Shown here piece after piece: positions 21 through 9,200 of a stretch of DNA of 31,894 bases (its first letter is position 1; each line of letters starts with the position of its first letter). A program made the translations under genes and the position numbers. Under the pieces are notes generated by a model, which was not told the DNA's origin, ran no database searches, and saw nothing but the letters and a program-made list of their open reading frames with translations. Location of the stretch: the IMG/VR virus record IMGVR_UViG_2558860161_000001; one strand, given 5' to 3'. The DNA comes from a virus. Lineage: Duplodnaviria > Heunggongvirae > Uroviricota > Caudoviricetes.

Positions 21-113
21 ATGTGGTATTTACTTTGGTTCGTCGGCATTTTGTTGATGTGTTCGCTCTCCACCCTTGTGTTGGTATGGCTGGACCCGCG
101 TCTGAAAAGTTAA
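21..113 (+). CDS. appX: Cytochrome bd-II oxidase small accessory subunit AppX-like peptide (30 aa), host flank
   Basis: ATG at 21, TAA at 111-113. Translation MWYLLWFVGILLMCSLSTLVLVWLDPRLKS is a single-TM 30-aa peptide matching the enterobacterial AppX/CydX small-subunit family as I recall it. Not phage-like. Confidence 0.7.
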   Translation: MWYLLWFVGILLMCSLSTLVLVWLDPRLKS

Positions 114-178
114 CGAACGTAGGCCTGATGCGGCGTGATTAGACTTGAGATAAATGACAGGGGATAAGTGAGATAATT

Positions 179-213
179 ATGGGAAGTACTGGGTCAACAT
201 GGGAAGAGACTGG
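179..213. repeat. Direct repeats ATGGGAAG-N(1-2)-ACTGG at 179..193 and 199..213 near the prophage left end; candidate transposase-binding sites
   Basis: Two near-identical 14-15 bp direct repeats about 20 bp apart in the non-coding stretch between appX and mor. Related half-motifs AGACTGG/AGACTTG occur at 141..147, 207..213 and 250..256, and GAGATAA(A/T)T at 147..155 and 170..178. Confidence 0.4.
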
Positions 214-215
214 AT

Positions 216-248
<33 letters not shown>

Positions 249-296
249 AAGACTGGCCCGAAAAAAACAGAACTCGCACCAGCCTGATTGCAGATA

Positions 297-686
297 TTAC
301 TCCTTTTTCCCTGTATCGGCATCAGGTTCGCCATCAAACAGTTTGCCCTGCATCCGATCCAGTTCTTCTTTTCTGACCCGCTTCACCACGCTGTAAACCC
401 ACTGTAGTGAAACACCAAATTTGCGGGCCAGTTCGTGATGGTTGCGCCCGTCAAACTCCAGGAAAATTTCCCGGTCGCGCTGGCTGACCTTCCAGACCAT
501 GCCCATCGGAAAATAGACGTTTTGCCCACCCCAGACCTGCATCATGCGGTTCGCGACGGCCTGACCAATCTGGTCGGCAACTGCGGGTTCGATATCAATA
601 ATCTCGCGGACAGTCTCAGAGGTATGCTGTGCCAGTTCCACCAACAGTTCCGGCCCTTTACTACGAAACTGATTCAGGTCGCTCAT
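297..686 (-). CDS. mor: Mor/C-family transcriptional activator (Mu middle operon regulator homologue)
   Basis: Translation has the Mor/C C-terminal HTH signature (GGQNVYFPMG ... FNGRNHHELARKFGVSLQWVYSVVKR) resembling Mu Mor. Start moved to the internal ATG at 684..686, which has a GGGAG Shine-Dalgarno and an ATGA overlap with the upstream stop. Last gene of the leftward early operon. Confidence 0.8.
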   Translation of the reverse strand: MSDLNQFRSKGPELLVELAQHTSETVREIIDIEPAVADQIGQAVANRMMQVWGGQNVYFPMGMVWKVSQRDREIFLEFDGRNHHELARKFGVSLQWVYSVVKRVRKEELDRMQGKLFDGEPDADTGKKE

Positions 687-1111
687 TGCTTCACTCCCGC
701 AGCTCTGCGCTGCCACTTCTTCAGTTTCTCAATCACGCTACTTGCCTGCTCATTGCTGAGCCAGCGTAACGCGCTGATGCCGGTTTCCCGTTTAACCCAC
801 AGCGCCAGCGCCTGCTCTGAACTGTCACGGACGATGCCTGCGGCAGCCATTTCAAGCCATAGCGCACGGATTTTCTTTGACTGCGGATGGCTGTCGAGCG
901 GTAAGCCGGACTTGGCTTTCCCGGCAGGCTTAATGCGAAAGCCTTTCTTTTTCATTGATTCCAGCACGCGGTTTAGCTGTGGGGTATCCATCCCTTTGGT
1001 TGAGGCTTTGCCGGTCAGCCCCTGTAGCATCTGGCGGTAGGTGTCCTCATCCATCTGGAGGTCGCTGCGGGCAATATGAATGAGTTGAATAAGACGCTGC
1101 TTAGTCATCAT
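683..1111 (-). CDS. gemA: GemA-like protein (Mu gp16, DUF1018 family)
   Basis: Translation MMTKQRLIQLIHIARSDLQMDEDTYRQMLQGLTGK...NRVLESMKKKGF matches the conserved GemA N-terminal motif. ATG at 1109..1111 is preceded by an AAGGAG Shine-Dalgarno. The longer track ORF (to 1300) was rejected. Confidence 0.75.
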   Translation of the reverse strand: MMTKQRLIQLIHIARSDLQMDEDTYRQMLQGLTGKASTKGMDTPQLNRVLESMKKKGFRIKPAGKAKSGLPLDSHPQSKKIRALWLEMAAAGIVRDSSEQALALWVKRETGISALRWLSNEQASSVIEKLKKWQRRAAGVKQ

Positions 1112-1316
1112 TGCCACTCCTTTTACCTGCGCCACCGATATAGTCGACATATAAAGGAAGCGCGACAGGCCAGCACAGGAACATAACGGCCCAACTGATC
1201 CAGTGTCCGGTACCGCTGTAACGTGAGTAAAACCCTGAACGGCGGTGCAGTTCAGCAGTACACCACCCCACGAGACCATACCAGAACAAGGCACATACAA
1301 TTGATTCAGCCATCAT
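1101..1316 (-). CDS. Small hydrophobic protein (71 aa, two predicted TM helices), function unknown
   Basis: ORF with ATGA overlap to the upstream gene stop. Hydrophobic stretches IVCALFWYGLVGW and WISWAVMFLCWPVALPLYV. No recognisable family. Confidence 0.5.
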   Translation of the reverse strand: MMAESIVCALFWYGLVGWCTAELHRRSGFYSRYSGTGHWISWAVMFLCWPVALPLYVDYIGGAGKRSGNDD

Positions 1317-2002
1317 AAGCCACTCCCCAGCTTCCGCTGTTCCTGCCCGCTGACAGGCTGATGTAGACGGACGTTTTCTCCCTCTCTGTAACCGATGTGG
1401 CGGGACATGTCCGCGTCACGGGATTTACCGGCTTTGCGGCCAGAGGTTGTTCCTGAATCAGGGTATTTTTGTTCAAGCCAGAGGTTTGCCAGCTCCCGTT
1501 CTTCGCGGGACATAGCAAATAAATGAACCTCACTACGCACGGCCAGAACCCATCCTTCGGCAAATTTGTCACCACGGCTGGTCTTGGTCGTGTTTTTGAT
1601 TCTTTTATTCTGCTGTCGAATATAGTTTTTACGGGCCATGATTAACTGTCTGGCCAGTACCTCCCATGTATATGAGGCCAGTTCAACCCGGTCTTTATTA
1701 CCGTAAAAGCCAACGCCGGGTTTAAAGCCGGAGTGAATAATAGACTTAACGCCAAATGCCACCTGGATAATATCCAGCAGACCCAGCATATAACGCGGCG
1801 GATTAACGCTACCTGCAGCCCAGTAGTTACTGACGCTTTCATCAATATCACTGAGTGCGAGGTCAGCCTGGGTGATGTTATAGGCCTGCATCAGTTTCTG
1901 GGCGCGTTGCAGTGCCAGTGCCGCTTCATGGGGGTTATCGGATTTAGCCAGCGCAAGTAGCTTTTTTAACTTCTCCAGCAGCTTTTCATTATTCTGCGGC
2001 AT
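1313..2002 (-). CDS. DUF2786-like phage early protein
   Basis: N-terminal motif EKLLEKLKKLLALAKSDNPHEAALALQRAQKLM is typical of the DUF2786 family as I recall it. ATG at 2000..2002. Confidence 0.6.
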   Translation of the reverse strand: MPQNNEKLLEKLKKLLALAKSDNPHEAALALQRAQKLMQAYNITQADLALSDIDESVSNYWAAGSVNPPRYMLGLLDIIQVAFGVKSIIHSGFKPGVGFYGNKDRVELASYTWEVLARQLIMARKNYIRQQNKRIKNTTKTSRGDKFAEGWVLAVRSEVHLFAMSREERELANLWLEQKYPDSGTTSGRKAGKSRDADMSRHIGYREGENVRLHQPVSGQEQRKLGSGL

Positions 2003-2285
2003 AAGTCACCCCCAGGCGTTCGGCAAGGCGTTCCAGCTTTTTCTGCTTATGAAAATCAATCATCAGGCCCATCCCGTTTAGGCGGAACTGTTCAATCATG
2101 ATTTCAACGTCAGCCAGTTCGCCTGCCAGATCAACTTCATTGCCCAGTCCGTTCATGTTGCGGGCAGCAGCAGCGGCCAGTTCGGCAGCTTCTTCCATCA
2201 GCTTCAGAGCCTGAGCTTCTGGGCCGAAGGTTTTGAGGGCCAGATTGTAGATCGTCGAACGGTTATATAATTTCATGCCTTTCAT
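1989..2285 (-). CDS. Small all-alpha protein, possibly MazG-like NTP pyrophosphohydrolase
   Basis: 98-aa ORF with EExxE (LMEEAAELA) and ExxD (GELADVEIM) motifs consistent with the MazG/HisE-type fold. Assignment is tentative. Confidence 0.45.
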   Translation of the reverse strand: MKGMKLYNRSTIYNLALKTFGPEAQALKLMEEAAELAAAAARNMNGLGNEVDLAGELADVEIMIEQFRLNGMGLMIDFHKQKKLERLAERLGVTYAAE

Positions 2286-2300
2286 CTTATCTTCCCCAAA

Positions 2301-2573
2301 TCAATGGCGTGATACGCTGATAACTTTCACGTGGCCGTCCTCAGTAATTTCCAGCTCGTACAGCGGCGGCATTTTTCTCAGGTGGTCACTGGTGGCGTGA
2401 AGAACGTAAATGGCCTGATCTAGGCCATTTGTTGCTACGATGGCGTGTGAAGCCATGCTGATTAATTTGATTAATACCTGCCGGATATGGTTGGGATTTT
2501 CACAACCACATTCACTGATATATTCCGCGACAATTTCACGGGTCCGTTTTTCGGCTTCTTTTGCAGTAATCAT
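2301..2573 (-). CDS. Hypothetical early protein (90 aa)
   Basis: ORF in the early operon; its ATG overlaps the upstream stop (ATGA). No recognisable motif. Confidence 0.5.
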   Translation of the reverse strand: MITAKEAEKRTREIVAEYISECGCENPNHIRQVLIKLISMASHAIVATNGLDQAIYVLHATSDHLRKMPPLYELEITEDGHVKVISVSRH

Positions 2574-2758
2574 TTCTTTGCCTCACAAGGGATGAATTCC
2601 ATGGCCGGGACTTCGGTGTAGTAATGCTGGCTACAGTGTGGGCATACCAGCGTGATGAGGACGGCTGGTACGCGGTACTTACCGGAGGAAATGACGCTGG
2701 CGTCGCTGAACTTCAGGGTGGTGATACCTTTCTGGCAGTTGATACATTTGATGGACAT
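2570..2758 (-). CDS. Small zinc-ribbon protein (62 aa, CxxC ... CxxC)
   Basis: Cys pairs CINC (residues 5-8) and CPHC (39-42). AAGGA Shine-Dalgarno 8 nt upstream of ATG at 2756..2758. Confidence 0.55.
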   Translation of the reverse strand: MSIKCINCQKGITTLKFSDASVISSGKYRVPAVLITLVCPHCSQHYYTEVPAMEFIPCEAKK

Positions 2759-2779
2759 GATTTATTCCTTAATGCTGTT

Positions 2780-2814
2780 TTCGGCGTGCAGAAGCCCACG
2801 GCACTGACGCCGAA
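2780..2814 (-). other. Intergenic stem-loop (8-bp stem TTCGGCGT/ACGCCGAA) just upstream of the zinc-ribbon gene RBS
   Basis: Inverted repeat at 2780..2787 and 2807..2814. No U-tract follows on the transcribed (minus) strand, so it is not a classical intrinsic terminator; possible processing or attenuation element. Confidence 0.3.
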
Positions 2815-2836
2815 ATAAAAAGAAATTGAATTAAAA

Positions 2837-3448
2837 TTAAATGGCAGCGATATCTAACGGAATATTAATTAGCTTCCCGTGTTTATCTTTCTCCCGGAAA
2901 TTAATATAGGTTTTGGACATTGCCACCTGCAGTGATTCCGATATGGCCTCCATTGCCCGGTTCCAGCGCTCGTCCTGAATCTTGACGCGGCGCAGGGAAA
3001 GAATACGTCCGGTATTAAGCTGGCCCTCTTTGTCCACCTGAAAAGCATCGCTGATGATGGCCCGCAGGTTGGCGTTCGCGCCTTCCGACCACTCGGTGAC
3101 GCACTCGTCTATCAGGTCTTTGGCAATCTGCAGCTCTGGCCCGAAGGTCAGGGTTTCCTGCACGCGGATGGTGATCTGCTGAGCACCGTCGAAGCTGCTG
3201 AAGGTCACGTTGCCTTTGGCACCGCCACGCGTTCTGCCGTACTTCTCGGCCACAAGGTCAAGCCAGGCATAGCACTCGTCAAAGGCACGACGCTTGAAGT
3301 CACTGAGTTCATCGCGTTTAACCTTCGCGGCGACAACCTGTTCTTTAACGAAAGAGTCCATCGCAAGGTCATAGTCAGACACCTGGTCAACCGGCACCAG
3401 ACGCCCCTTGCGGTCTTTCATGTAGTTTTCTTTATTTACTTCGCTCAT
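2837..3448 (-). CDS. Conserved transposable-phage early protein (tentatively DUF3164-like)
   Basis: 203-aa ORF with AAGGTGA Shine-Dalgarno before ATG at 3446..3448. Position downstream of the helper ATPase and sequence character fit the family; assignment is from memory only. Confidence 0.55.
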   Translation of the reverse strand: MSEVNKENYMKDRKGRLVPVDQVSDYDLAMDSFVKEQVVAAKVKRDELSDFKRRAFDECYAWLDLVAEKYGRTRGGAKGNVTFSSFDGAQQITIRVQETLTFGPELQIAKDLIDECVTEWSEGANANLRAIISDAFQVDKEGQLNTGRILSLRRVKIQDERWNRAMEAISESLQVAMSKTYINFREKDKHGKLINIPLDIAAI

Positions 3449-3465
3449 CTCTGTTCACCTTATGG

Positions 3466-3735
3466 TTAATGTAACGACTCTGACCAGGTAATACGGCAGC
3501 CATGCAACTCAAAGACACCCTGACGGAAGCGCCCTGAGCCGTCATGGCCAACATGGGTATAACTCGCTTTGCCCTGCTCCAGCAGGCGGGCACAGTGCCC
3601 GTTGCGGGCGATACGGATAACCGGCTTACTGCCAGCAATCATGACGCTCTGCACGGTAGTGTTCATGGCGTTGAGCGCCATAATGGCGGACTGCACCTTG
3701 TTCATCTGCTGGTTGATATCGGCGATGGATTTCAT
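3466..3735 (-). CDS. Hypothetical early protein (89 aa)
   Basis: ORF starting 2 nt after the stop of the helper ATPase gene. No recognisable motif. Confidence 0.5.
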   Translation of the reverse strand: MKSIADINQQMNKVQSAIMALNAMNTTVQSVMIAGSKPVIRIARNGHCARLLEQGKASYTHVGHDGSGRFRQGVFELHGCRITWSESLH

Positions 3736-3737
3736 GC

Positions 3738-4904
3738 TTAAACTCCTTTGACGACGTCGGCGTTGACCTGCGGGACCCCGATTTCAGCAGCCAGATTCAT
3801 GGCGGCTATCACCAGGTTACTGACGGCCAGCGGATACAGCAGGCTGACCATGCTTTTACGGCTACTACCCAGATTGCTCAGACGGGCGCGGATGGCTTCC
3901 ACTGCGCTGGCGTCCATGATGTCGGCCAGCTGCTTACCGGCACGTTGCAGTTTGAACGTCAGAAACTCTTCGAGGCTGTTGTCCAGCGGCAGCAATTCAA
4001 CCAACTCGCAGCGCTGGACGACCTCACGGACTTCCATGTTGCGTTCGGACAGTTTGTCCGCCAGTTCAGGCTGGCCAATCAGCACGATGGACAGCAGTTT
4101 TTTGAAGCCGGACTCCAGTTCGAAGAAGCGTTTAAGGTGCTTCAGCGTCGGAATGGGAAGGCTGTGGGCCTCCTCAATCACCAGAACGTGGCTGAAACCC
4201 GCCTGACTGCTGTCCTTCAGGACTCGGTGCAACTGGCGGAAGCGGGCGTCCTGGCTGCGTTTGATACTCTCCAGCGGCGCGATGGTGCTGATGATGGCCT
4301 CGGCGATAGCTGCCGCCTTCAGGGTTTTGCCCTTCACGTCGTTGTCTTCCATGGCGATGATGTATGGCTCGATTACAATCACCGGCGCGTTCTCGCGGTT
4401 GACGCGTTCAATCAGGTCGCGGCGCAGCGTGGATTTACCCGCACCGGACTCGCCGATAACCGCCAGAAAGCCACCATGGCGGGCGGTCTGGAACAGCGCC
4501 TCACGCACGTAGCGGATATCCGGCGTGGTGAACACATCGTCCGCGCCCTGCATGGCTTCATCGGCGAACGGATCACGGAAAAGGCCAAACGCTTTTTTGG
4601 TTGCTGGAAATAACACCTGCTTTTTGAGTAACATGTTCTCTTCCTCACTGAGGTTGGTTTTATCGGTAGTACCCGCTGTACGGGGCGTGACAGCGCCCTG
4701 TGCAGCATCAAAACTTTTCACTGTATCAATCCCCTTACTTTCCAGATACAACGCCAGACGCTGGCGTACCTCTTCGGGGCTGGTGCGTGGCCACTCGTTA
4801 TGGTTCACAATCTGGGCCAGCGTGGCCTCGGAAACGGCGACGGCTCTTGCCACCACCGCCTGCGGGATGCGGGCCTCTTTCAGTTGTTGCTTCAGTACCA
4901 GCAT
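3738..4904 (-). CDS. Transposition helper AAA+ ATPase (MuB/TniB-like)
   Basis: Walker A GESGAGKST and Walker B-like HVLVIEEAH. GAGGAGG Shine-Dalgarno before ATG at 4902..4904. Immediately downstream of the transposase gene, as in Mu A-B. Confidence 0.85.
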   Translation of the reverse strand: MLVLKQQLKEARIPQAVVARAVAVSEATLAQIVNHNEWPRTSPEEVRQRLALYLESKGIDTVKSFDAAQGAVTPRTAGTTDKTNLSEEENMLLKKQVLFPATKKAFGLFRDPFADEAMQGADDVFTTPDIRYVREALFQTARHGGFLAVIGESGAGKSTLRRDLIERVNRENAPVIVIEPYIIAMEDNDVKGKTLKAAAIAEAIISTIAPLESIKRSQDARFRQLHRVLKDSSQAGFSHVLVIEEAHSLPIPTLKHLKRFFELESGFKKLLSIVLIGQPELADKLSERNMEVREVVQRCELVELLPLDNSLEEFLTFKLQRAGKQLADIMDASAVEAIRARLSNLGSSRKSMVSLLYPLAVSNLVIAAMNLAAEIGVPQVNADVVKGV

Positions 4905-4914
4905 GCCTTCCTCC

Positions 4915-6684
4915 TCAGTTACCGTTAACGATGCTGATAACGCTGTTGCGGGCCGGAGTGGTCAGGGTAACCATCACCTCATCCAGCGCGGCTTCAGGTA
5001 CGCCATCCGGGTACTGCGCCGTTAACTGGCGGTAATGTTCCGGCGTCCAGATATGGCCGTTAGCGCCAAACTTCTCGCGCAGGGCTTTCGCCGCCTCCAC
5101 ATGGGTCAGCGGACGCTGCTCAATACGCGGCCCGCGCACGTCTGAAGCCTGACCGCGCTTCGGCATATAGGCCGGAAGCGTGGTGTCGTCGATATGTTTG
5201 TACGGGTCAAGTCGCCCGCCGAACGGCAGCGCCTTCGCCTTGCGTGCAGCAGCTGCATCGGTGGCGTTATCGGTGCCCGTAACCAGCTCTTCGATTTCTT
5301 TTGCCGCCGTCTGCGCCGGGGTCTCCGGCAGGGCTTTGTAGTTTTCGCCAAATACCGCCGCGTTTTCGGCAAAGCCGAACTCGTTCTTTCTGACCTCCTC
5401 GACCAGGAAGAACGTCTCGTGACCGTCCTCACCGGTCAGCACCACCTGCGCCACATCGCTGCGCCACGGGTTACGGGTAATCATCAGTTTTTCGCCGACC
5501 AGTACGCCCGGTACCGTCGAAACGTCAAACTCATTGCCCCGGAACGAGACGCGCAGTTTTGGTGTGACCTTACGGAGTTCCGGTGCGGCCACCGCCAGTT
5601 CGCGGCAAACCTCAACGGATGGCGCTTTTTTCAGCTGGTCAGCAGTAATCTTCAGCCAGATATCCGTGCGGGTTTTACCGTGGCGGCTGTGGACCGCCGT
5701 GGCGTTAAAGTGGCTGCGCCATTTCACCGCCAGTGCGTTCAGTTCGTCCAGGCTATGAACCGGCTGGAATTTGAGACCCGGCTCCAGTTTACGTTCGATA
5801 ATGTCACGGGCCTTTTCCACCTGCCCGGTGGCGCGGGCGTTATGCGGCTTGTGCGCTATCAGATTGATGCCCAGCGAGCGGCACATGTTTTTCGTCATGC
5901 CAGCGGTGTTCGCCGAACCGGGATCAAGGTAGAGTATTTTCGGCACGCCGTGCAGCACGTCCGCGCCGCCGCGCTCCTGCATGGCGTTGATAAGCACAGA
6001 ACAGAGGTTCTCACCAGATTCCGCACCCATCACGTACTCAACGTAAATCCAGCCGCTGGTATGGTCGGTAATCTCGTAACTCCACACGCGGTCACTGGCG
6101 ATGCGGGCGATGTTGGCAGGCTTGTTCTTGTAGAACTTCGAGCTGTCCATCACCTGCAACCCTTTATGGCCGTTGCTCAGGTAGTAAAGCGTACAAAGTG
6201 AGGCATCAATCTCCCAGACGTGATTGGGATGCAGGCTGGCCATCTCGGACGACGGGGCCGGTGCGTCAAGCTGTTCCGGGTGCAGACCATAGTTCCGCAG
6301 GGCGCGGCTGATGGTGTCCTCGGACAGCGGGAAAAACTCGCCTGTGGCCTCGTCCGTTCTGCCAGCAGTGATAAAGCCGTTTGACCGCAGGGTCTCCACC
6401 GCATCCGCGATGGAATACAGGCGCTTACCGTTCTTACGGGTGGCCTCGCGCAGCGTGGCAGATATCAGCGCGGCTTCGTCGCGGCTCAGGGCACTGCGCC
6501 CGGCATCGGCGCGTTTTTTACGTTTGTCAGTCACTGATACCTCCTTCAGCTTGCGCAGCAGGGTGGCGCGGGAAATGCCCAGTTCGGCGCAGGCGGCATC
6601 ATATATCGCACCACGCTTACCATGCCCCGCGTCACGTGCCGCGCGGGCAACATAAACCAGTCGTTCAGTCAGGGCGGCACTCAT
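4915..6684 (-). CDS. DDE transposase (transposable-phage TnpA, rve/Tn552-like catalytic core)
   Basis: 589 aa. N-terminal HTH-like region, then catalytic residues in HVWEIDAS and ILYLDPGSANT contexts followed by a conserved Glu region. AGGAGG Shine-Dalgarno 8 nt upstream. Confidence 0.9.
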   Translation of the reverse strand: MSAALTERLVYVARAARDAGHGKRGAIYDAACAELGISRATLLRKLKEVSVTDKRKKRADAGRSALSRDEAALISATLREATRKNGKRLYSIADAVETLRSNGFITAGRTDEATGEFFPLSEDTISRALRNYGLHPEQLDAPAPSSEMASLHPNHVWEIDASLCTLYYLSNGHKGLQVMDSSKFYKNKPANIARIASDRVWSYEITDHTSGWIYVEYVMGAESGENLCSVLINAMQERGGADVLHGVPKILYLDPGSANTAGMTKNMCRSLGINLIAHKPHNARATGQVEKARDIIERKLEPGLKFQPVHSLDELNALAVKWRSHFNATAVHSRHGKTRTDIWLKITADQLKKAPSVEVCRELAVAAPELRKVTPKLRVSFRGNEFDVSTVPGVLVGEKLMITRNPWRSDVAQVVLTGEDGHETFFLVEEVRKNEFGFAENAAVFGENYKALPETPAQTAAKEIEELVTGTDNATDAAAARKAKALPFGGRLDPYKHIDDTTLPAYMPKRGQASDVRGPRIEQRPLTHVEAAKALREKFGANGHIWTPEHYRQLTAQYPDGVPEAALDEVMVTLTTPARNSVISIVNGN

Positions 6685-6687
6685 GGG

Positions 6688-7596
6688 TTATGCCTCCTGC
6701 CCGTTAATCTCTGGCGTCGGGTCAGTCAGCCATGAAGGGGCGGCGTTGCCTGTCGGCTCGTCCGGCAGGTCAAATGTGGAGCGTAGGCTACGCGCGGTGC
6801 TTTCCAACTGGCAGACCAGACCGGCCATAAAGTCTCTGGGGGTATCAATCATATTTTCAGCACAGTATGCGCACAGGGTCTCAAAGGCGCTGGACAGTCG
6901 AACGGCGATGGCAGATTCCGCCTCAACCGCTAACGCTGTAACTTCCGCACGCAGCTTCTTCACCTCTTCGTCAGGCTTGGGCGGCTGGATACGGGATTTC
7001 TTCTCCAGTTTTGTGGAGAGCGAGTCGATTTTTTCGTTTTTGTCGGCAAGCACGCGCTGTTGTGCTGCGTTGGTTTCGCGGGCTTCACGTAGGGCTTGAC
7101 GCAATTCTCTACAGCTCATGCGGTCGACATCATCTAGTTTCAGACCCGCTACAGTGCCACCATCAGCCAGTTCAGCGAGAGATTCATCATCTTCAGTCAT
7201 CAATTCAAAAAGTTTGGATTTACCCAAATGTGCCAACGTTGGCACATTTGATTTCAGTGCGGGGGATAAGTATTTAGTCGATGCTTGCATCATCCGCACA
7301 GAAGTTCGGTATGGTAAGCCCAACTCATTTTCAAGAATGTTAATAAATTCCCCGTGCGGCTCATTTTCTTTAAGAATTACAAGGCGCTTACCTGCTTCCA
7401 GCATCGCCTCAGCACTCTGTGCCATATAAAACCGTGTTTCGTGAACAATACGATCACGTTCATACGGCAGACCATCACCGAACTGCTGCATGATTTCGAG
7501 GCGATGTTCGGTCATGGCATTAAGACTAACGTTGAGGCCATCACTCAGCGGAGCATCTTCCATTAGTTCAACTGGTTGTGATTTTGTGCGTCCCAT
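6688..7596 (-). CDS. Early protein with DUF3102-like N-terminal domain and central coiled coil
   Basis: Motif AGKRLVILKENEPHGEFINILENELGLPYRTSVRMMQAS resembles the DUF3102 signature (from memory). GGAG Shine-Dalgarno before ATG at 7594..7596. Confidence 0.55.
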   Translation of the reverse strand: MGRTKSQPVELMEDAPLSDGLNVSLNAMTEHRLEIMQQFGDGLPYERDRIVHETRFYMAQSAEAMLEAGKRLVILKENEPHGEFINILENELGLPYRTSVRMMQASTKYLSPALKSNVPTLAHLGKSKLFELMTEDDESLAELADGGTVAGLKLDDVDRMSCRELRQALREARETNAAQQRVLADKNEKIDSLSTKLEKKSRIQPPKPDEEVKKLRAEVTALAVEAESAIAVRLSSAFETLCAYCAENMIDTPRDFMAGLVCQLESTARSLRSTFDLPDEPTGNAAPSWLTDPTPEINGQEA

Positions 7597-7605
7597 TTCA
7601 ACTCC

Positions 7606-7911
7606 TTAGCGACTACCAGCCATAACACGCTGGTTGATTTCATTAATACGATCCTGCGCCCGCGCCATTTCGGTACTGTGCGCCATGGCGATTTGTAAGA
7701 GCTGGACTCCAGGGGCAAAACGCCCGTTATCCAGTTTCAGGGCCAGTCCTTCTTCGATAAGGGTATTGAGCGCCCGATTGATATTCGCCGGGGACTCGCC
7801 CAGAGCTGACGCCAGCTCGCCGTTAGAAACACCGTTCAGAGCGTGACCGCGTAAAGCCTTAAGGACACGCAAAATACGGGTACCTGAGCTTGATGTATTT
7901 GGTTTACTCAT
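7606..7911 (-). CDS. Winged-helix HTH DNA-binding protein (IclR/MarR-like N-terminal domain)
   Basis: TRILRVLKALRGHALNGVSNGELASALGESPANINRALNTLIEEGLA is a typical wHTH pattern. ATGA overlap with the ner stop. Confidence 0.6.
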   Translation of the reverse strand: MSKPNTSSSGTRILRVLKALRGHALNGVSNGELASALGESPANINRALNTLIEEGLALKLDNGRFAPGVQLLQIAMAHSTEMARAQDRINEINQRVMAGSR

Positions 7912-8132
7912 GACGCCTCCTTGAGGATGCCGGGGGTAACTTCTTTGCCTATTGCGACCGAAAGGTCTCGCAAAATCCGATAAGTCAAACGACCGCGTGG
8001 AAGTTCGCTTTTGCCTGCCCAGCGGCTGACAGCCTGGGTGACTGTTCGTGGCTCATAGCCCGCGTTAAGCGCGAACTGGCGCAAGCTACTGCCTCTTTCA
8101 ACCAGCCGTGCCCGAACTTGTTGTTTGTTCAT
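7908..8132 (-). CDS. ner: Ner-like DNA-binding protein (Ner/Nlp family), first gene of the early operon
   Basis: 74 aa from ATG at 8130..8132 (AGGA Shine-Dalgarno upstream). LRQFALNAGYEPRTVTQAVSR resembles the Mu Ner/E. coli Nlp HTH. Confidence 0.7.
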   Translation of the reverse strand: MNKQQVRARLVERGSSLRQFALNAGYEPRTVTQAVSRWAGKSELPRGRLTYRILRDLSVAIGKEVTPGILKEAS

Positions 8133-8176
8133 ATGCACCGTGTTCCTGTTGGGTTATGATGTACTCTATTGGGTCT

Positions 8177-8204
8177 ATTGTACGCACCCGAACGGGTATG
8201 TCAA
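8177..8204 (-). promoter_or_regulatory. Predicted early promoter (Pe): -35 TTGACA, 16-nt spacer, -10 TACAAT, with dyad operator ACCCG-AA-CGGGT in the spacer
   Basis: Reverse complement of 8199..8204 is TTGACA and of 8177..8182 is TACAAT. The inverted repeat at 8186..8197 sits between them. Located about 45 nt upstream of the ner start codon. Confidence 0.55.
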
Positions 8205-8220
8205 ATTGAGATATGTTCAA

Positions 8221-8631
8221 ATGAGTATAAAAGAGAGATTGCGCGAAGCGATGGATGCTAAGAGTCTGACAATTAAGGCATTGTCAGACTTGTCAAAAAT
8301 TCCATATCGCTCACTTCAAAACTATCTGCGTGGAGAGAGAGAACCTAATGCAGAGGCTCTTGTTGCGCTAAGCACCCATTTGAACATATCAATAGATTGG
8401 CTACTTACTGGTAAAGGGGAAGCTGTTGGGGTAGAGAAAGCACAGCCAGCTAATCAGGAGCAGCATTTCAACCAGTCTGATCTGAAGTTATTGGAGCTGC
8501 TCAACCAACTGGAGCCAGAGGTGCGAAAAGAGTTGCTGCGAGGCGCTGAGGAAAAACAGCGAATGATTGATATGGAAAAACAGCTTAAGGAGCTGTCCGC
8601 AGCGTTCGAAAGATTAAAAAATACGGGTTAA
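8221..8631 (+). CDS. XRE-family HTH repressor (CI/c-like immunity repressor, no peptidase domain)
   Basis: N-terminal HTH (LTIKALSDLSKIPYRSLQNYLRGEREP...ISIDWLLTGKG) and C-terminal coiled coil. Divergent from the early operon. ATG at 8221 preferred over the upstream alternative start of the track ORF. Confidence 0.7.
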   Translation: MSIKERLREAMDAKSLTIKALSDLSKIPYRSLQNYLRGEREPNAEALVALSTHLNISIDWLLTGKGEAVGVEKAQPANQEQHFNQSDLKLLELLNQLEPEVRKELLRGAEEKQRMIDMEKQLKELSAAFERLKNTG

Positions 8632-8672
8632 TCTGTTCCTATTAAGAACATTATAGGTATAAGGACATGACT

Positions 8673-9200
8673 ATGCGCAAATTATTTTTACCGTTGATAT
8701 TTGTTTTATCTGGGTGTGGAGATAATACCGATCCTGCTGATACGTCCACCACAGCTAAGGAGCACGCGGTTTTTAGCGTTGAAACAGATAATCCGGTTGT
8801 AAATCGCGAATTACCGTTTATTCGCCAACAACTCCCCGGCCTGGATAAGTACGCGGACAGTTTTGAAAAAGTCGAAGTATCCGAGGATAGCGAACGTCCG
8901 GTGACAACGGTGCAGTTTCATATTAAAGACGAAAATAATATTCCAAGTGACTACATAGCCTCTGGTCATAATTGTTATTTGTTCATATCAAATAATGCCC
9001 ACGAAGTGAAAATATCTAAATCAGCATGTCAGGCTGTTTTTTTCGATAAAACGGATGTTCCTGGTGGAGACCTGACCGTGAAACTTGATAAGGAAAAAGT
9101 TCCTATGACAGATGATGGTAAGACCCCGCGAGCAGGTTGTTTGAAAGCTTATTCACCAGAGCCAGATAATGATTATTGGACTTGTCCAAGGCAGGATTAA
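8673..9200 (+). CDS. Lipoprotein of unknown function (moron; lipobox LSGC)
   Basis: Signal peptide MRKLFLPLIFVLSGC with lipobox Cys. Four further Cys in the mature part. AAGGA Shine-Dalgarno 7 nt before ATG at 8673. Gene and the adjacent repressor are markedly AT-richer (about 40-43% GC by eye) than the rest of the prophage (about 55-60%). Confidence 0.65.
   Translation: MRKLFLPLIFVLSGCGDNTDPADTSTTAKEHAVFSVETDNPVVNRELPFIRQQLPGLDKYADSFEKVEVSEDSERPVTTVQFHIKDENNIPSDYIASGHNCYLFISNNAHEVKISKSACQAVFFDKTDVPGGDLTVKLDKEKVPMTDDGKTPRAGCLKAYSPEPDNDYWTCPRQD

Follow-up and report, generated by a model that had tools for sequence, protein, structure and literature searches.

The 31,894-nucleotide (nt) stretch of DNA analysed here (IMG/VR record IMGVR_UViG_2558860161_000001), hereafter called the window, holds an element which, judging from its genes and borders, is a BcepMu/B3-type transposable prophage inserted beside the Escherichia coli gene appX and not Mu itself. 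Between the transposition genes of this prophage (the transposase gene A and the ATPase gene B) and the genes gemA and mor lies a cluster of small genes at 1101-3735, and the locus raises the question whether these genes are free accessory cargo or whether some of them hold a defined place in the early operon. For one gene, which encodes a protein of the family DUF3164, the comparison with related loci suggests an answer: it looks less like free accessory cargo than like one of two alternative occupants, the other being Gam, of a slot that is nearly always filled. The region as such is ordinary, since it belongs to a known type of transposable prophage and stands in RefSeq already as DUFs and hypothetical proteins; the present analysis corrects the number of genes, identifies the type of phage, assigns one gene as probably Kil-like and adds a hypothesis for DUF3164.

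DUF3164 and Gam at one position of the early operon

The DUF3164 gene (2837-3448, minus strand) encodes a protein of 203 amino acids (aa) which matches the Pfam family PF11363 with an E-value of 7e-80 (267.6 bits against a cut-off of 23.7, model positions 1-193 of 194) and is 44% identical to gp05 of BcepMu. This strong match confirms the DUF3164-like call of a first-pass annotation of the window. In Mu the same slot is occupied by Gam (PF07352), a Ku-like DNA-end binder and inhibitor of host nucleases, which is 174 aa long against the 203 aa of the DUF3164 protein and has a similar range of isoelectric point (pI). In Escherichia phage PhiKM a homologue of Mu Gam lies exactly at the position of the DUF3164 gene of the window, and DUF3164 is absent from all PhiKM-type loci. 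The same exchange was found among the B3-like Pseudomonas phages, where JBD25 (PF11363, 2941-3594) and H72 (Gam, 2942-3460) are about 97% identical on either side of the swap, and among the Casadabanviruses, where this is equally true of LPB1 (DUF3164, 6575-7192) and JBD30 (Gam, 7600-8118). DUF3164 and Gam thus replace each other precisely in three lineages, in two of them within genomes that are about 97% identical.

A scan of 289 fetched loci with profile hidden Markov models (HMMs) detected DUF3164 in 114 and Gam in 172 loci, and not a single locus contained both. Within 10 kb Gam was absent from all 70 loci anchored on DUF3164, which were relatives of at least 64% identity, and DUF3164 was absent from all 80 loci anchored on Gam. 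In a comparison sample of 80 viral contigs, with B as the anchor gene, only two carried neither gene, namely L027, whose contig ends just past B, and L075, a deletion derivative. Gam was found neither in the whole window nor in the whole B3 genome. At the level of phage records DUF3164 occurs in 209 and Gam in 139, and no accession is common to both among the records listed; 60 of the 209 DUF3164 records, taken in even steps down the ranking, all belong to transposable Mu-like phages as judged from names, hosts or gene positions. In Bacteroidetes prophages, according to one published survey, DUF3164 follows the genes for the transposase and the ATPase (PMC7761591), and another survey counts Gam as near-core for transposable phages (PMC8705779).

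The strict exclusivity and the precise swaps, without detectable homology, led us to propose DUF3164 as a substitute for Gam. The protein could have taken the place of Mu Gam in function without being its homologue, a role not recognised so far, and could shield the ends of linear phage DNA against RecBCD-type nucleases of the host or neutralise these enzymes in another way, a reading which we put forward tentatively and rate at somewhat less than an even chance. It would do Gam's job with an unrelated protein, shielding the phage DNA ends from the host exonuclease (RecBCD) or performing an equivalent early step. The virion proteome of a Mu-like roseophage included peptides of DUF3164 (PMC5488378); if this detection is real, the protein might accompany the DNA, in keeping with end protection on infection. 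A functional study of DUF3164 (PF11363), DUF2786 (PF10979) or DUF7168 was not found in the literature.

Several points weigh against the proposal. DUF3164 is without sequence similarity to Gam (hhalign probability 0.5%), and its AlphaFold2 model is without structural match to Ku or Gam; diverged Ku/Gam descent, which we considered as well, thus finds no support. A Foldseek comparison of the model with viral models returned nothing at E <= 0.001, and no fold was assigned. The model is itself mediocre, with a predicted local distance difference test score (pLDDT) of 77 and a predicted template modelling score (pTM) of 0.48, so that the structure neither supports nor excludes a Gam-like mechanism. 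Moreover, the loci counted for exclusivity are not independent of each other, many being near-identical prophages, and the independent evidence therefore amounts to about three or four swap events.

This heavy redundancy also speaks for a different explanation, according to which DUF3164 and Gam are functionally unrelated and alternate only because they lie at a hot spot of recombination flanked by conserved sequence, for example a hairpin, with a few ancestral haplotypes being oversampled. In the enterobacterial lineage a conserved hairpin does flank the slot. It lies on the minus strand at 2779-2815, in the 78-nt gap between the DUF3164 gene and the downstream gene zn62, and consists of TTTCGGCGT, a 19-nt loop and ACGCCGAAA. 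RNA folding of the 86-nt intergenic stretch gave -22.9 kcal/mol (z -3.1). Across 63 related loci the loop differs but the stem does not, and the hairpin persists beside a Gam-type upstream neighbour and beside downstream neighbours other than zn62. We rejected it as an intrinsic terminator because a U-run is absent after it on both strands; it may be an element of RNA processing or stability, or a recombination boundary. A hot spot is also favoured by neighbouring small genes that move with the cassette (gp08 in JBD25, gp14 in JBD30) and by the very absence of sequence and structural similarity between the two proteins. It accounts less well for the fact that three lineages, which differ in transposase type and in flanking genes, show the same two-way alternation. 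In the loci examined the slot is hardly ever empty and never occupied by a third gene family, whereas elsewhere in the region genes are often missing or replaced by a range of others. Gam is likewise absent from those DUF3164-carrying phages whose transposition genes are of the MuA/MuB type. We consider a mere hot spot rather unlikely and prefer the reading of DUF3164 as a functional replacement for Gam.

If true, this replacement would explain why B3, BcepMu and the present prophage do without Gam, and DUF3164 would be a second widespread phage family for DNA-end protection. The either/or pattern together with the near-isogenic pairs JBD25/H72 and LPB1/JBD30 is in any case a lead on the function of a DUF present in more than 200 sequenced phages.

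A variable cluster of seven genes

The interval 1101-3735 contains seven open reading frames (ORFs), all on the minus strand, which in operon order encode proteins of 89, 203 (DUF3164), 62 (zn62), 90 (orf90), 98 (MazG-like), 229 (DUF2786) and 71 aa (tm71). In E. coli AW1.7, where a 100% identical prophage occurs, NCBI has annotated exactly the same seven coding sequences. The first-pass annotation had counted eight genes, its own enumeration also coming to seven; an eighth gene was not found, the other ORFs of the interval being nested in larger genes in different frames. It had also described the genes as chained by ATGA overlaps. This holds for zn62/orf90 (2570-2573) and DUF2786/tm71 (1313-1316) and, outside the cluster, for gemA/mor, but the mazG-like gene and the DUF2786 gene overlap by 14 nt, tm71 and gemA by 11 nt, and the remaining junctions are gaps of 2, 17, 15 and 78 nt. 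A plausible Shine-Dalgarno sequence precedes every start. The median ratios of nonsynonymous to synonymous substitution rates (dN/dS), computed against distinct alleles from related loci, are in operon order 0.11, 0.07, 0.10, 0.36, 0.11, 0.09 and 0.15 from the 89-aa ORF to tm71, compared with 0.07 for the transposase and 0.075 for B. On these values all seven ORFs are real genes under purifying selection, as the claim of genuine coding had it, and all are conserved as coding in related prophages. Profile searches did not assign every product to a well-known replication or structural family. Neither NCBIfam nor PADLOC gave a meaningful match for the seven proteins, and searches of PDB sequences with single sequences and profiles (MazG-like protein, DUF3164 and DUF2786) returned only noise and designed helical repeats.

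Among the 80 loci anchored on B the interval from B to gemA ranges from 1.75 to 4.3 kb, the presence and absence of genes differ, and some loci have extra small genes. Most loci whose neighbouring genes are close alleles of those in the window are without orf90, and the MazG-like gene and DUF2786 are each absent from several loci. Compared with PhiKM, the core proteins are 87-95% and the accessory proteins 45-72% identical. Since gene presence varies in this way among about 80 related prophages, the description as a variable accessory early region is correct. The position between A/B and GemA/Mor and the variable content agree with the proposed variable semi-essential region of a Mu-type phage, with co-oriented genes mostly without known function, and we consider it quite likely that the cluster is the semi-essential early (SEE) region of a BcepMu/B3-type prophage. 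The label Mu-type is right in so far as this is the early region of a transposable phage; the layout, with a Tn552-like rve transposase, an ExeA-like B and a leftward operon, is that of BcepMu and B3 and not of Mu. The cluster would accordingly be pictured not as one machine but as a mosaic of independent small functions, whose genes are gained, lost and swapped among relatives. A natural deletion derivative was seen in L075 (7155-8044), where B is followed only by a zn62-like gene of 71 aa, a truncated GemA of 81 aa and Mor, with host genes soon after; zn62 is the sole accessory gene retained there.

Variable content and faster divergence than that of the core genes are typical of arms-race genes, and the cluster might thus be chiefly an anti-defence island. 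Its small proteins would then inhibit restriction-modification, CRISPR, abortive infection or cyclic-nucleotide signalling, the MazG-like protein would remove an alarmone or signalling nucleotide, and DUF3164 would block RecBCD as a defence nuclease. There is a precedent in Atd1, a phage MazG-like enzyme that depletes (p)ppGpp and thereby counters abortive infection (bioRxiv 10.1101/2022.06.09.495361), and Gam itself counters a host nuclease (Mu annotation; PMC8705779). Nevertheless, no product matches a model of PADLOC, the search having covered PADLOC and no anti-defence library, and dN/dS values of 0.07-0.15 indicate ordinary purifying and not diversifying selection. The DUF3164, Kil-like and MazG-like genes are, furthermore, near-universal in the phage group, which fits housekeeping roles in the lytic cycle better. 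An island devoted mainly to anti-defence therefore appears doubtful to us, and we return to the mosaic of separate early functions.

The semi-essential (SE) region of Mu, from kil to gene 14/gp54, resembles the cluster in its position between B and gemA, on the same strand, and in its many small, packed genes mostly without known function. A Kil-type gene follows directly after B in both, and gp13 of Mu is a small zinc-ribbon-like protein and as such a counterpart in type to zn62. The Mu SE proteins, however, gave no BLASTP match to any of the seven proteins of the cluster. Mu has Gam and is without DUF3164, DUF2786 and a MazG-like protein; a terminator and a separate promoter precede its gemA, whereas in the window tm71 overlaps this gene; and its transposition genes are MuA and MuB instead of Tn552-like rve and ExeA/AAA_22. 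Closer in layout are the early regions of BcepMu (gp03-gp07) and B3 (ORF3-ORF10), which as in the window form a leftward operon ending with gemA-mor at the genome end and whose A, B, GemA and Mor are homologous to those of the window. B3 encodes DUF3164 (ORF6) and DUF2786 (ORF5). With BcepMu only DUF3164 is shared among the seven cluster proteins: the early region of BcepMu contains genes for a single-stranded DNA-binding protein and HU and is without DUF2786, a zinc-ribbon gene, orf90 and tm71, and its gp06, a member of PHROG families called 'pyrophosphatase', has no BLASTP similarity to the MazG-like protein of the window.

The gene behind B and Mu Kil

The first gene of the cluster (3466-3735, minus strand) starts 2 nt past the stop codon of B and encodes a basic protein of 89 aa (phrog_2041, E 3e-33). 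Mu Kil (gp5) is likewise a small, basic protein encoded directly downstream of B, with a distance of 18 nt, and the pI values are 9.9 for the 89-aa protein and 10.2 for Mu Kil. The PHROG family annotated as 'Kil', phrog_6381, matches the 89-aa protein weakly (E 0.005; Mu Kil E 1e-9). When the profile of the 89-aa family was compared with Mu Kil by hhalign, a probability of 88% and an E-value of 3e-6 were obtained with an alignment of 16 sequences, and 92.6% and 4.6e-7, covering 70 of 74 Kil columns, with an alignment of 42 sequences from an exhaustive search. The two proteins share the C-terminal pattern P-x-I/L-x-I ... C ... GC-R/Q-I-x-W. In the scan of 289 loci the 89-aa family was found in 147 and the Kil family in 116 loci, and in none were both found together; the 89-aa family is present in some phages with MuB-type genes, too.

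On this evidence Mu Kil and the 89-aa protein are probably homologous, though distantly. The first-pass annotation had suggested that the membrane peptide, tm71, could be Kil-like; the place of the 89-aa ORF after B, its profile match and the mutual exclusion of the two families redirect this suggestion to that ORF, and we dropped tm71 as the candidate. Of the two proteins that had been described as featureless, the 89-aa protein has a match to a Kil profile; the 90-aa protein is without match to Pfam, NCBIfam and PADLOC. In the proposed scheme the 89-aa protein would be a diverged Kil, small and basic, made directly after B and acting in host killing or host takeover.

On the other side, both families are short and the link to Kil consists in a distant match between their profiles. 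A plain HMM search of the 89-aa protein against Kil gave an E-value of 0.13, and pairwise BLAST with Mu Kil found nothing beyond an 8-residue C-terminal motif, L-x-GC-x-I-x-W. Pairwise identity is about 21-24%, the protein of the window is 15 residues longer, and the two belong to different PHROGs. We know of no molecular target of Mu Kil, and the Kil assignment names a phenotype and not a mechanism. The Kil-like family in the BcepMu-type prophages examined here offers more sequences for finding the target of Kil.

The genes after B in the two type phages were also considered as relatives. For gp07 of BcepMu there was no BLASTP alignment with the 89-aa protein, the sole link being a weak PHROG cross-hit (E 0.008), and for ORF10 of B3 the HMM score was insignificant with respect to the 89-aa protein and Kil; we therefore accept neither.

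Remaining genes and the surrounding prophage

The 98-aa protein encoded at 1989-2285 (minus strand) is a divergent MazG/PRA-PH-like candidate. It matches phrog_2245, 'NTP pyrophosphohydrolase' (nucleoside triphosphate, NTP), with an E-value of 5e-31, and relatives are named 'NTP pyrophosphatase' by some sources. The motifs EExxE (31-35) and ExxD (56-59, with E56 and D59), on which the tentative MazG-like call was based, are present and mostly but not fully conserved in the family, and E61 and E65 are invariant. Against the call stand the Pfam scores, which are below the cut-offs both for PRA-PH (19.6 against 21.3 bits, E 1.3e-3) and for MazG (13.5 against 22, E 0.09), and the fact that part of EExxE is missing in some family members. 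Among 15 members of the family PRA-PH was matched in six and MazG in five, always below the threshold, and a profile search of the PDB gave no match for the protein. The call is plausible on its motifs and its PHROG family. The protein would then be a nucleotide pyrophosphohydrolase of the MazG type acting on the nucleotide pool or on an alarmone, and the gene is a reasonable candidate for the manipulation of either. With pyrophosphatases of the Atd1 type it has in common that it is a short, all-alpha candidate with EExxE...ExxD among early accessory genes, a likeness drawn at the level of description. Homologues in L258-L268, L067 and L102 are longer, at about 160-170 aa, and end in one of two unrelated C-terminal extensions; the first type is found in Gam-carrying Mu-like phages and the second in enterobacterial BcepMu-like prophages.

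The next gene (1313-2002, minus strand) encodes a basic protein of 229 aa in which DUF2786 (PF10979; residues 7-45, E 2e-13, 50.4 against 23.9 bits) is followed by DUF7168 (PF23771; residues 47-190, E 1.5e-24, 86.7 against 25.5 bits). Both domains exceed the Pfam gathering scores, in agreement with the DUF2786-like call made earlier. The protein is possibly a nucleic-acid binder, and in our scheme it would act as a basic, nucleic-acid-binding protein. For the core of DUF7168 a KH domain, with its beta-alpha-alpha-beta-beta-alpha fold and GxxG loop, was considered as a candidate. In two metagenomic proteins of 364 aa (P0197, P0199) DUF2786 and DUF7168 are fused to a SprT-like metalloprotease domain (PF10263), and this fusion may be a clue to a DNA-linked function of the two domains.

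No role is assignable to zn62, orf90 and tm71. The gene zn62 (2570-2758, minus strand; phrog_3401, E 9e-32) encodes the 62-aa protein with a CxxC...CxxC pattern that had been called a zinc ribbon. All 44 distinct alleles, the most divergent at 26% identity, have the cysteines C5, C8, C39 and C42, which bears out the call; every match to Pfam zinc-ribbon models is below the threshold. The product of orf90 (2301-2573, minus strand; phrog_3691, E 2e-44), which is the most sporadic gene of the cluster, has the conserved motifs ExCxC and AIVATNG. Its dN/dS is 0.08 for close alleles, and the median of 0.36 stems from comparisons with saturated synonymous sites. The peptide tm71 (1101-1316, minus strand; phrog_6436, E 8e-15) shows two hydropathy peaks at residues 5-21 and 40-57, approximately, in accordance with the two transmembrane segments assigned to it, and a WPxxLP motif conserved in 36 alleles. 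As none of the three belongs to a family of known function, and as orf90 is frequently absent and has the highest median dN/dS of the cluster, one might regard them as non-functional, conserved translated spacers or remnants kept by operon linkage. The reading frames and the motifs (the cysteines, AIVATNG and WPxxLP) are, however, kept down to 26-40% identity, dN/dS between close alleles is 0.06-0.10, and each gene has a Shine-Dalgarno sequence and a PHROG family of its own, so that we hold this explanation to be very improbable.

The genes around the cluster all lie on the minus strand. Downstream are gemA (683-1111; Pfam GemA, E 9e-41) and mor (297-686; Pfam Mor, E 1e-42), with coordinates as given by NCBI for the identical prophage. 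Upstream lie the B-type AAA_22/ExeA ATPase gene (3738-4904; Pfam AAA_22, E 3e-20; 60% identical to BcepMu gp08) and the gene of the DDE transposase, which is Tn552-like rve (4915-6684; phrog_310, E 6e-145; 68% identical to BcepMu gp09). They are preceded in the early operon by a DUF3102 gene (6688-7596), a helix-turn-helix (HTH) gene (7606-7911) and, as the first gene, a Ner-like ORF of 74 aa (7908-8132). The order as transcribed is thus Ner-like, HTH, DUF3102, transposase, B, the seven-gene cluster, gemA and mor. On the plus strand a repressor-like HTH gene begins near 8222, divergent from the early operon, and the late genes run rightward from about 10.2 kb. BcepMu and B3 have the same layout with an early operon that runs leftward and reaches the genome end.

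In the divergent control region (8133-8221) a candidate promoter faces the early operon, with the repressor-like gene opposite. This promoter, TTGACA-16-TACAAT at 8177-8204 on the minus strand, has 11 of 12 consensus matches and is the best site in 100-8700. A consensus scan found no minus-strand terminator-like site between the promoter (8204-8177) and mor. A near-consensus promoter without such a site down to mor makes a single early transcript from A/B through the cluster likely. This transcript would run leftward from about 8204-8177 through the Ner-like, DUF3102, transposase and B genes, then through the seven genes as its distal part, and on to gemA and mor. To be weighed against it is that the operon structure comes solely from consensus scans.

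The host flank comprises bases 1-136 of the window and corresponds to the appX end of the E. coli cyx/app locus; the product of bases 21-113 we take to be AppX. Bases 1-133 are matched in nearly all complete E. coli genomes, and prophage homology begins at 133-136. The element itself is present in 23 of 5426 complete E. coli genomes. In AW1.7 the 100% identical prophage lies at another chromosomal site, inside a disrupted decarboxylase gene; this other insertion gene, compared with the appX flank of the window, is consistent with insertion by transposition. Near relatives in the phage database are Escherichia phage Phi06_2974 B (99.7%), a contig named 'Klebsiella phage KP12' (96.8%) and PhiKM (88.9%), which is classified in the genus Bcepmuvirus.

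The record of the KP12 contig (OM835952.1, L003, 'Klebsiella phage KP12 clone KP12_2') places it in the Vequintavirinae, but with 96.8% identity to the BcepMu-like prophage of the window the contig probably stems from a prophage of the host that was assembled together with the phage, and not from a Vequintavirus genome. In eight further loci (L013, L016, L017, L019, L021, L022, L032 and L050) the transposase, encoded upstream of B at 6001-7164, is 60-63% identical to that of the window while the adjacent B is 95-99% identical. Two transposase alleles appear, from these identities, to have been recombined onto one backbone of B and accessory genes.

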